Part shown: in pieces, positions 12,780 through 17,374 of the stretch
Layout: the number at the start of each line of letters is the position of its first letter
Position numbering within the stretch: the stretch's first letter is position 1
Assembly (NCBI RefSeq): GCF_003334355.1
Contig: NZ_QOWP01000011.1
DNA from: Escherichia coli
GTDB lineage: Bacteria > Pseudomonadota > Gammaproteobacteria > Enterobacterales > Enterobacteriaceae
DNA length: 64,000 nt
Strand: one strand, 5' to 3'
Position numbers and translations under genes: made by a program
The notes under the pieces: model-generated
The model's input: the letters and a program-made list of their open reading frames with translations, nothing else
What the model was told of the DNA's origin: nothing
The model's database searches: none

Positions 12780-13397
12780 ATGGCACAGCTATATTTCTAC
12801 TATTCCGCAATGAATGCGGGTAAGTCTACAGCATTGTTGCAATCTTCATACAATTACCAGGAACGCGGCATGCGCACTGTCGTATATACGGCAGAAATTG
12901 ATGATCGCTTTGGTGCCGGGAAAGTCAGTTCGCGTATAGGTTTGTCATCGCCTGCAAAATTATTTAACCAAAATTCATCATTATTTGATGAGATTCGTGC
13001 GGAACATGAACAGCAGGCAATTCATTGCGTACTGGTTGATGAATGCCAGTTTTTAACCAGACAACAAGTATATGAATTATCGGAGGTTGTCGATCAACTC
13101 GATATACCCGTACTTTGTTATGGTTTACGTACCGATTTTCGAGGTGAATTATTTATTGGCAGCCAATACTTACTGGCATGGTCCGACAAACTGGTTGAAT
13201 TAAAAACCATCTGTTTTTGTGGCCGTAAAGCAAGCATGGTGCTGCGTCTTGATCAAGCAGGCAGACCTTATAACGAAGGTGAGCAGGTGGTAATTGGTGG
13301 TAATGAACGATACGTTTCTGTATGCCGTAAACACTATAAAGAGGCGTTACAAGTCGACTCATTAACGGCTATTCAGGAAAGGCATCGCCACGATTAA
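12780..13397 (+). CDS. tdk: thymidine kinase
   Basis: 205-aa ORF with P-loop SAMNAGKST and C-terminal Cys zinc motif. Confidence 0.92.
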
Positions 13398-13411
13398 TAA
13401 GAATTTCTTTA

Positions 13412-13454
13412 CTGACAGGGTGAGCAGGGCACTTTTATCCTGTCAGTTCGTTTT
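13412..13454 (+). terminator. putative tdk terminator
   Basis: ctgacagg ... cctgtcag inverted repeat with long loop, then ttcgtttt. Confidence 0.5.
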
Positions 13455-13678
13455 ACGCACTTCTTCCGGGCTATATACCCTTCTCGGCAGTTTTTTAACG
13501 CCGCTATACGCCTCACAGGGCTCTTAAGCACCGACGTTGACTTGTGACCTGTAAAGTACAATATCCCTGTGTTTAGGCGTTATACATCGTCGCAAATATG
13601 ATGAAGGCTAATGCTGTCGGTTTATGGAAAAGTTGCTTTGGGTAAACAAAAAATACGGTCCCAGAAGGGCAATGCCGT

Positions 13679-14575
13679 TCACTTAAGAGGAGCGGCACTA
13701 TGTTTCACAGGATAACGGGTTTTTGATATCTTAACCGACCTCGGCCTTGATGGTCGGGGGCGTTTTGTTATGAACACCACTTCCAGAGCACCCCGAAGAT
13801 GCTCCAGTCGTTTCGGGATGGTCCCTGGTGACGCCGTGTTTCCCAGCTCTATCATTTCTGATGCGATATTCTTCCACGCAGGCAGTAGCCAGTGGCGGTT
13901 ACAACCCTTCTGGTTCAGCGTCAGCAGCAGGTCTTCGCTGTAAAAAAGTTTATCAAACAACGTAATAGAGTTATCCGGGATGGTGGCGAGCATGGAGTGG
14001 GCCAGCACAGTTTCGCTCTGCCGGTAAGGTGCGGTCACGGCATTCAGCAGAATGTGACTTCCCAGGTTCATTAAGGCCACCAGACGCATAACCGGGTAGG
14101 CGTTCTGCCGCTTAGTGGATGTGTTGGCAGACCCATAATATTCACGCAGCTCGGGTTTATCAGGTGTCCTGAACTGTGCGCCATCAATGGCAAAAAGTTG
14201 CAGGCCGTGCCAGTCATCCTTCAAGTAACGTTCCGCGCCCCTGTCTGTGCGGTCTGGCGGAAGAGCCATTCCACTGGGGCGGCCCCCACGCGCTGACGCG
14301 CCTGGGTGACAGCGCTGCGGGCCAGCAGGTTCATCCCCGCTTCGCCATCCGCGCTCAGGTTCAGACGGCGAACAACATCGGTAATTGGCTCATTGCACCA
14401 CCATCCAGATAACCATGTCCCCCGGTAAACGACGGCGGCGAACGGTCGCATGAGCAGAAAACGTCAGGCAGTGTTGTATCCACTCGGTGGGAAGGTGTTC
14501 TGCAAATAGTTGTGCAGAGGGCGGAGGCATAAGCGGATGGTCACTGAAATCGAGCAGATCATTGAGAAGTGGCAT
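13679..14575 (-). pseudogene. insZ: transposase-like pseudogene (IS remnant, frameshifted)
   Basis: Three consecutive minus-strand ORFs (14390-14575, 14221-14451, 13679-14269) in alternating frames with transposase-like composition; matches the position of the K-12 pseudogene between tdk and adhE. Confidence 0.65.
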
Positions 14576-14698
14576 AAGAAAACGGCTCCCTGTTGTGGAA
14601 GCCGTTATAGTGCCTCAGTTTAAGGATCGGTCAACTAATCCTTAACTGATCGGCATTGCCCAGAAGGGGCCGTTTATGTTGCCAGACAGCGCTACTGA

Positions 14699-17374
14699 TT
14701 AAGCGGATTTTTTCGCTTTTTTCTCAGCTTTAGCCGGAGCAGCTTCTTTCTTCGCTGCAGTTTCACCTTCTACATAATCACGACCGTAGTAGGTATCCAG
14801 CAGAATCTGTTTCAGCTCGGAGATCAGCGGGTAACGCGGGTTAGCGCCGGTGCACTGGTCATCGAATGCATCTTCAGACAGTTTATCCACGTTCGCCAGG
14901 AAGTCTGCTTCCTGAACGCCAGCTTCACGGATAGATTTCGGAATACCCAGTTCAGCTTTCAGCGTTTCCAGCCATGCCAGCAGTTTCTCGATCTTAGCAG
15001 CAGTACGGTCGCCCGGTGCGCTCAGACCCAAGTGGTCGGCAATTTCAGCATAACGACGGCGAGCCTGCGGACGGTCATACTGGCTGAATGCAGTCTGCTT
15101 GGTCGGGTTGTCGTTCGCATTGTAGCGAATAACGTTACAAATCAGCAGGGCGTTTGCCAGACCGTGCGGAATATGGAACTGGGAACCCAGTTTGTGCGCC
15201 ATTGAGTGACATACACCCAGGAAGGCGTTCGCAAACGCGATACCCGCGATAGTCGCTGCACTGTGAACACGTTCACGCGCTACCGGATTTTTAGACCCTT
15301 CGTGGTAGGACGCTGGCAGATATTCTTTCAGCAGTTTCAGTGCCTGCAGAGCCTGACCATCAGAGAACTCAGATGCCAGTACAGAAACATAAGCTTCCAT
15401 GGCGTGAGTTACTGCGTCCAGACCACCGAAAGCACACAGGGACTTCGGCATGTCCATAACCAGGTTGGCGTCGACAATCGCCATATCCGGAGTCAGCGCA
15501 TAGTCTGCCAGCGGATATTTCTGACCAGTAGCGTCGTCAGTTACAACCGCAAACGGAGTGACTTCAGAACCTGTACCAGAAGTGGTGGTGACAGCGATCA
15601 TTTTCGCTTTCACGCCCATTTTCGGGAACTTGTAGATACGTTTACGGATATCCATAAAGCGCAGCGCCAGCTCTTCGAAGTGAGTTTCCGGATGTTCGTA
15701 CATAACCCACATGATCTTCGCGGCGTCCATCGGGGAACCACCACCCAGCGCGATAATCACGTCTGGTTTGAAGGAGTTTGCCAGTTCTGCACCTTTACGA
15801 ACGATGCTCAGGGTCGGGTCCGCTTCTACTTCGAAGAAGACTTCAGTTTCAACGCCTGCTGCTTTCAGTACGGAAGTGATCTGATCAGCATAACCATTGT
15901 TGAACAGGAAGCGGTCAGTCACGATGAGCGCACGTTTGTGGCCATCAGTAATCACTTCATCCAGCGCGATTGGCAGGGAGCCACGGCGGAAGTAGATAGA
16001 TTTCGGAAGTTTGTGCCACAACATGTTTTCAGCTCGCTTAGCAACGGTTTTCTTGTTGATCAGGTGTTTCGGACCAACGTTTTCAGAGATGGAGTTACCA
16101 CCCCAAGAACCACAACCCAGAGTCAGGGAAGGTGCGAGTTTGAAGTTATACAGGTCACCGATACCACCCTGAGACGCTGGGGTGTTAATCAGGATACGCG
16201 CCGTTTTCATTTTCTGACCGAAGTAAGAAACGCGAGCCGGTTGGTTATCCTGGTCAGTGTACAGGCAAGAGGTATGACCGATACCGCCCATAGCAACCAG
16301 TTTCTCTGCTTTTTCTACCGCGTCTTCGAAATCTTTAGCGCGGTACATTGCCAGAGTCGGGGACAGTTTTTCATGTGCGAACGGTTCGCTTTCATCAACA
16401 ACGGTCACTTCACCGATCAGAATCTTGGTGTTTTCTGGTACAGAGAAGCCTGCCAGTTCAGCAATTTTATAGGCTGGCTGACCAACGATAGCCGCGTTCA
16501 GCGCACCGTTTTTCAGGATAACATCCTGAACAGCTTTCAGCTCTTTACCCTGCAACAGATAGCCGCCGTGGGTTGCAAAACGTTCACGTACAGCATCATA
16601 AACAGAGTCAACAACAACAACAGACTGTTCAGAAGCACAGATTACGCCGTTGTCGAAGGTTTTGGACATCAGTACAGATGCAACTGCACGTTTGATATCA
16701 GCAGTTTCATCGATAACAACTGGAGTGTTGCCCGCGCCTACACCGATAGCTGGTTTACCGGAGCTGTATGCGGCTTTAACCATGCCCGGACCACCAGTCG
16801 CGAGGATCAGGTTGATGTCTGGGTGGTGCATCAGTGCGTTAGACAGTTCAACAGAAGGTTGATCGATCCAGCCGATCAGATCTTTCGGAGCACCGGCAGC
16901 GATAGCAGCCTGCAGAACGATATCAGCCGCTTTGTTGGTGGCATCTTTTGCACGCGGGTGCGGGGAGAAGATAATGGCGTTACGGGTCTTCAGACTGATC
17001 AGCGATTTGAAGATAGCAGTTGAAGTCGGGTTAGTGGTCGGAACGATACCGCAAATAATACCGATTGGTTCAGCGATAGTGATGGTACCAAAAGTGTCGT
17101 CTTCAGACAGAACACCACAGGTTTTTTCATCTTTATAGGCGTTGTAGATATATTCAGAAGCAAAGTGGTTTTTGATCACTTTATCTTCGACGATACCCAT
17201 GCCGGATTCGGCAACGGCCATTTTCGCGAGTGGGATTCGAGCATCTGCAGCAGCCAGAGCGGCGGCGCGGAAGATTTTGTCTACTTGCTCTTGAGTGAAA
17301 CTGGCATATTCACGCTGGGCTTTTTTTACACGCTCTACGAGTGCGTTAAGTTCAGCGACATTAGTAACAGCCAT
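14699..17374 (-). CDS. adhE: bifunctional aldehyde/alcohol dehydrogenase
   Basis: 891-aa ORF; N-terminal aldehyde dehydrogenase and C-terminal Fe-ADH domains; Ala/Lys-rich C-terminal tail. Confidence 0.95.

Follow-up and report, generated by a model that had tools for sequence, protein, structure and literature searches.

The broken reading frames between tdk and adhE in the analysed Escherichia coli DNA (a single stretch of 64,000 nucleotides, hereafter the window) are almost certainly insZ, or ISZ', a defective insertion sequence of the IS4 family (IS4 subgroup) lodged in the terminator hairpin of adhE. We found no evidence contradicting this identification. The names insZ and ISZ' are in use in the literature (PMC3032704, PMC3465305, PMC5009759), and in E. 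coli K-12 they denote an IS4-like pseudogene between tdk and adhE (PMC3465305; PMC3032704, Table 3), which is what the window contains. The relic shares with its K-12 counterpart the position between the two genes, the 897-bp pseudogene span and the lesions; it is an already catalogued, named and ordinary K-12 pseudogene. The same 897-bp span is annotated by PGAP as 'IS4 family transposase, frameshifted' in a K-12-like RefSeq genome (L001). From this record the window differs at three bases in the relic region (13659, 14224 and 14461) and at a fourth inside adhE (16595), and positions 13400-14700 are 100% identical to strain PSS-12. The source of the window is therefore a close K-12 relative rather than MG1655 itself.

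A decayed IS4-subgroup transposase

The relic is bordered by tdk (12780-13397, plus strand) on one side and adhE (14699-17374, minus strand) on the other, and the window also carries galU and hns. The initial annotation had read three overlapping minus-strand ORFs of 61, 76 and 196 aa in alternating frames as one transposase-like protein broken by frameshifts. Both parts of this reading were borne out. The ORF list confirmed the frames, with the 61-aa and 196-aa ORFs sharing one and the 76-aa ORF lying in another (Table 1). The conceptual protein obtained by joining them across the two shifts (299 aa) matched the NCBIfam model NF033592 'IS4 family transposase' with an E-value of 5.6e-39 and 134 bits, against a curated cut-off of 115 bits, a similarity far beyond chance.

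An intact relative of 1430 bp occurs on E. coli plasmids, NZ_CP062837.1 being one of them, and on chromosomes, and a plasmid copy served as reference. It contains one uninterrupted 445-aa ORF (WP_029488891.1, annotated "IS4 family transposase") with the Pfam domains Nterm_IS4 (1.7e-30) and DDE_Tnp_1 (5.1e-22), scoring 263 bits against NF033592. The two elements are ~92% identical in nucleotide sequence, with identical terminal repeats and the same leader hairpins. The repaired relic protein aligned with WP_029488891.1 in two pieces: residues 1-240, at ~92% identity, and the final 66 residues, of which 58 (88%) were identical.

Base-by-base alignment to this intact element mapped the lesions. 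A 17-bp deletion lies between window positions 14397 and 14396 and a 1-bp deletion between 14242 and 14241, accounting for the excursion into the second frame and the return to the first. The largest lesion, which the initial annotation had missed, is a third one, an in-frame deletion of 423 bp (141 codons, with partial codons at both ends) covering about residues 242-383 of the 445-aa transposase. Its endpoints carry a TATCGC(G) microhomology in the intact element, and with it was lost YHSRWEIEVGFRNLK, the Y(2)R(3)E(6)K motif (Y311-K325) including the catalytic E318. The lengths close, as 1430 - 17 - 1 - 423 = 989. An autonomous IS has a complete frame and an intact catalytic triad; the relic has two frameshifting deletions and is devoid of E318 and the YREK motif. 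The relic of a Swiss STEC isolate (L036) has gained four further bases (TCAG), inserted after the counterpart of window position 14159. They introduce a third frameshift, indicating that decay of the relic continues; PGAP annotates only a partial pseudogene in this relic.

Table 1 Features of the relic and its surroundings in the window
Feature	Position	Strand	Basis or remark
61-aa ORF	14390-14575	minus	ORF list
76-aa ORF	14221-14451	minus	ORF list
196-aa ORF	13679-14269	minus	ORF list
Transposase pseudogene insZ	13679-14575	minus	ATG 14575-14573, TGA 13681-13679; PGAP span and NF033592
Whole defective IS4-family element (ISZ'), 989 bp	13670-14658	minus (transposase sense)	Alignment to empty site L004 and intact element L002:3001-4430
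Target-site duplication CCCAGAAGGG, tdk-side copy	13660-13669	.	Single copy in empty-site strains
Target-site duplication CCCAGAAGGG, adhE-side copy	14659-14668	.	Alignment to empty site
IRL, terminal inverted repeat adjoining the transposase start, CAATGCCGATCAGTTAAG on the minus strand	14641-14658		Identical to the intact element's end
IRR, terminal inverted repeat at the transposase 3' end, CAATGCCGTTCACTTAAG	13670-13687		Identical to the intact element's end
Segment 1, original frame, residues 1-60, start of Nterm_IS4 domain	14397-14575	minus	Ends at the 17-bp deletion
Segment 2, shifted frame, inside the 76-aa ORF	14242-14396	minus	Ends at the 1-bp deletion restoring the original frame
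Segment 3, original frame; D137- and D214-equivalent regions (AIDG, LFDK), then the C-terminal 66 residues past the deleted core	13679-14241	minus	
Junction of the in-frame 423-bp deletion	13868-13869	.	Same junction in all 1884 relic-bearing genomes
Subterminal palindrome overlapping IRL	14612-14654	minus	No mismatch in the intact element, two in the relic
IS-borne 10-bp hairpin followed by UUUUCUUAUG, terminator-like	14581-14606	minus	Terminator scan, folding
Distal half of the original adhE terminator, displaced (arm of the stem and T-tract, minus-strand reading)	13648-13659	minus	Comparison with empty site AAAAAAACGGCCCCAGAAGGGGCCGTTTATG
Proximal half of the same original stem, remaining beside adhE	14669-14678	minus	Comparison with empty site

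The IS4 subgroup is characterised by a length of 1400-1650 bp, ends of the form -AATR--------WTW (Table 1 therein), 10-13-bp target duplications and a transposase encoded in a single ORF with a D(60-110)D(100-150)E triad and the Y(2)R(3)E(6)K motif (PMC2266710). The intact relative shows all of these features, and the relic those that survived its deletions. Transposase homology (Nterm_IS4 and DDE_Tnp_1; NF033592) extends to the relic with the above-threshold score given above. The intact element has a length of 1430 bp, a single 445-aa frame without frameshifting and D137, D214, E318 and the YREK motif, compared with 989 bp and only the two Asp regions in the relic, which lacks the 17, 1 and 423 bp. 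The ends CAATGCCGTTCACTTAAG and CAATGCCGATCAGTTAAG carry AATG at positions 2-5 and TTA at positions 14-16. Target duplications are 10 bp at the relic and 10-11 bp at six other sites, and among copies of the intact element they likewise measure 10-11 bp (11 bp for the plasmid reference copy).

The transposase of this IS is 39% identical to that of IS4, making it a distinct IS of the same subgroup. IS4 (insG), the type element of the subgroup, has the same domain architecture and 11-14-bp target-site duplications; the ends of the two are alike (TAATGCC.. against CAATGCC..), and a preference for hairpin apices is common to both. A cluster look-up for the name of the intact relative returned only 'IS4 family transposase' and no ISfinder name was found; 'ISSd1' was rejected as a name, being listed under the IS3 family.

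Further copies of the same IS were encountered elsewhere. One full-length copy lies between copM and silE (L012, L013 and L017; ATCC 8739, ETEC H10407 and others), in a hairpin with the copper resistance cluster on one side and the silver resistance cluster on the other. At 1429 bp, this copy too has a frameshifted annotation; many 'full-length' copies are therefore also dead. Other chromosomal loci (H12, H13 and H16, including O157:H7) hold partial or frameshifted relics of the same IS lineage, some annotated as fragments of a 'transposase domain-containing protein', and an 87%-identical frameshifted copy resides on large plasmids of avian and human isolates (L018 is an avian-source ExPEC plasmid).

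Element ends and the split adhE terminator

Two alignments delineated the boundaries of the element, one with the empty site in L004 and one with the intact copy of 1430 bp (L002:3001-4430). The initial annotation had seen no obvious inverted repeats at the ends, a statement that did not hold: the element ends in imperfect 18-bp inverted repeats (16/18 matching), enclosed by the perfect 10-bp target-site duplication CCCAGAAGGG. Searching the 64-kb window for the repeat yielded two matches, both of them the element's own ends, with 0.05 expected by chance. The outer 18-21 bp of the relic are identical to the intact element at both ends.

Empty-site strains have a single CCCAGAAGGG copy and the whole hairpin. 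The initial placing of the relic between tdk and adhE as the remnant of an old insertion was correct. The target in empty strains is a hairpin with a 10-bp stem, AACGGCCCC-UUCU-GGGGCCGUU, followed by U7 on the adhE strand. Folding of this 56-nt site gave -23.9 kcal/mol (z -4.2), and by this prediction the hairpin is a canonical intrinsic terminator. The insertion point is its apex, 40 nt past the adhE stop codon. Folding revealed no canonical terminator kept at either junction, and regenerated terminators at the junctions were rejected on this basis. AdhE carries one accession (WP_000301651.1) in all strains compared, namely the K-12-like one with the relic, one with IS4 and two with an empty site. 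The earlier suggestion that the insertion reshaped the adhE 3' region thus applies to its untranslated part, where the terminator hairpin is split, but not to the protein. At 13659, T in place of C weakens the residual stem arm beside the target duplication.

Read-through from adhE enters the leader of the IS, which comprises the long subterminal hairpin, the 10-bp hairpin and then UUUUCUUAUG; the AUG following the leader hairpin is the transposase start. The 10-bp hairpin folds with -16.5 kcal/mol (z -6.4). Based on these folds, adhE transcripts now probably end at this IS-borne hairpin and its U-tract. Upstream of the transposase ATG, the 3' arm of this hairpin contains a GGGAG purine run, which may be read as a putative Shine-Dalgarno sequence. 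An Rfam scan of 13300-14800 yielded one sub-threshold match, ctRNA_p42d (33.4 bits against a gathering threshold of 50, E 3e-5; window 14572-14608, minus strand); a ctRNA identity of the leader hairpin was rejected, the match probably reflecting a generic terminator-like stem-loop.

On the opposite side, tdk has its own hairpin and T-run right after the stop codon (13411-13446), and no Rfam match was obtained in the ~200 bp between the tdk and adhE hairpins. In the tdk-proximal spacer (window 13398-13669, compared with L003:1499-1770), the ISZ'-bearing haplotype shows ~98.5% identity to the empty one and only ~92% to the one with the IS4 relic, and the latter two are ~94% identical to each other.

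Distribution, history and alternative readings

A megablast search of the tdk-adhE spacer against 5426 complete E. coli genomes revealed three kinds of locus: one with the relic, one with a 301-304-bp spacer without insert, and one with a different insert in the spacer. The relic was present in 1884 of the 5426 genomes (~35%), always at one locus, and the 423-bp deletion junction was likewise found in 1884 genomes. These equal counts point to a single insertion and decay, with vertical inheritance and no later mobilisation. The 423-bp segment itself was found in 266 genomes; among the matches listed it lay on plasmids or at other chromosomal positions, and none of these was a less decayed copy at tdk-adhE.

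This distribution bears directly on the idea that the relic is a non-autonomous, MITE-like element that can still be mobilised in trans, which we consider very improbable. Its ends match those of the intact element over the outermost 18-21 bp, and full-length copies of the same IS are present in 162 genomes. Yet a MITE-like derivative of 989 bp would occupy several loci with different target duplications, and the genomes with the junction equal in number those with the relic locus, with no additional loci; trans-mobilisation of the 989-bp form was rejected, as no second locus was found for it in the 5426 genomes. In agreement, no ISZ transposition was recorded in mutation-accumulation lines (PMC5009759).

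Empty sites exist in many E. coli, and no outgroup recovered had an interruption in the A-tract, GC-hairpin and T-tract just 3' of adhE; these outgroups comprised E. albertii, E. whittamii, two unnamed Escherichia species, two divergent "E. coli" species representatives, three Klebsiella and two Pseudocitrobacter. The empty state is therefore ancestral and the insertion derived; it arose once within E. coli and has been vertically inherited in about a third of the complete genomes. The relic is ~92% identical to every modern full-length copy sampled, and among the full-length copies listed the identity to the intact reference (L002) is 99% or more. The relic samples an older sister lineage of the modern copies. 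Comparison with the intact copy resulted in a dN/dS of 0.14 at a dS of 0.19, indicating that most of the divergence arose while the transposases of both lineages were functional.

Equally improbable is a domesticated fragment, such as a DNA-binding N-terminal peptide that inhibits transposition, or a cis element that persists as the supplier of the adhE terminator. The 61-aa ORF does retain the start of the Nterm_IS4 domain, the IS hairpin and U-tract are located where adhE now lacks a terminator of its own, and the relic has been kept in ~35% of the genomes. Vertical inheritance nevertheless accounts for this retention, the relic is absent from many E. coli and from all outgroups found, further frameshifts accumulate, and the putative ribosome-binding run GGGAG is located in the 3' arm of a hairpin. 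Least credible of all, with next to no probability, is a working gene that relies on programmed ribosomal frameshifting, the mode of expression of IS1 and IS3 transposases. The overlapping ORFs in alternating frames superficially resemble such genes. Alignment to the uninterrupted 445-aa homologue refutes this reading, the frame changes being exactly the 17-bp and 1-bp deletions and not native to intact homologues, which read in one frame. Absence of frameshifting is a defining trait of the IS4 family (PMC2266710), the relic has lost the catalytic Glu/YREK region, and some alleles bear the further 4-bp insertion.

For insZ/ISZ' as a defective IS4-subgroup copy, these results show the following history. 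A once-functional 1.43-kb element moved by cut-and-paste into the apex of the GC-rich terminator hairpin 3' of adhE, duplicating 10 bp of the hairpin. The copy then lost 17 bp and 1 bp, resulting in two frame changes, as well as the 423 bp with the catalytic Glu/YREK region, and in some lineages gained the further 4-bp insertion. The site was probably taken owing to a preference of this transposase, like that of IS4, for terminator-like palindromes. Transcripts of adhE would probably end at the hairpin and U-tract carried by the IS just upstream of the transposase start codon, and the relic would have no function of its own.

Terminator hairpins as insertion targets

To describe target choice, empty targets were reconstructed for seven independent insertions of this IS and for five distinct IS4 sites, the hairpin preference thus resting on 12 sites sampled from BLAST hit lists. 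For this IS, the midpoint of the duplication lay no more than 1 nt from the centre of a perfect 4-10-bp stem at 6/7 sites. Stems of 10 bp were present at three sites; at random window positions, stems of at least 10 bp occur with a frequency of 3e-4. Likewise, four of the five distinct IS4 sites were palindromic and terminator-like, with the target-site duplication centred on the hairpin apex.

In other E. coli, the adhE terminator hairpin is occupied by an intact IS4 (1426 bp; L005:3771-5196, NZ_CP098854.1) or by a 1145-bp IS4 relic, with carriers including the type strain ATCC 11775 and an O25:H4 strain. L003 and L007 are among these cases, at the same hairpin site, which corresponds to window 13660-14668. 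IS4 is inserted there in the orientation of ISZ' but with a 12-bp duplication, CCCCAGAAGGGG, instead of the 10-bp one, and the two insertions are therefore independent. The hairpin terminator 3' of gnd has likewise received an ISZ-type element (L015:401-1830) and IS4 (L034:301-1726) in different strains, and the 11-bp duplication, CAGCCTAGCTG, is the same for both. This IS and IS4 thus have two hot spots in common, the terminators of adhE and gnd.

For IS4, Mayaux et al. (1984) reportedly arrived at a target consensus of AAA-N20-TTT. A literature keyword search on IS4 target choice returned nothing specific. The hairpin preference is consistent with known behaviour rather than new.

The relic itself, an inert and catalogued pseudogene of E. 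coli K-12 and its relatives, matters very little. The tdk-adhE spacer, with its three states (empty, ISZ' relic, and IS4 or IS4 relic), provides a convenient lineage marker. Strains with the relic, laboratory K-12 among them, no longer have the native adhE terminator, and their adhE transcripts probably stop within the leader of the IS, which matters for work on the 3'-UTR and for expression engineering of adhE. The choice of site illustrates the hairpin or terminator preference of IS4-type elements, and owing to this preference insertions fit neatly between convergent genes without disrupting coding sequence. We give roughly even chances to a broader proposition: that IS4-subgroup transposases systematically target the apex of palindromes resembling intrinsic terminators (A-tract, GC-rich stem, T-tract) and carry a leader hairpin and U-tract replacing the terminator they split, rendering the insertions nearly neutral. 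If this is true, the adhE and gnd terminators would be recurrent hot spots, each used independently by two elements whose transposases are 39% identical, and a targeting rule common across such divergence would point to DNA shape or structure, and not a specific sequence, as the feature recognised.
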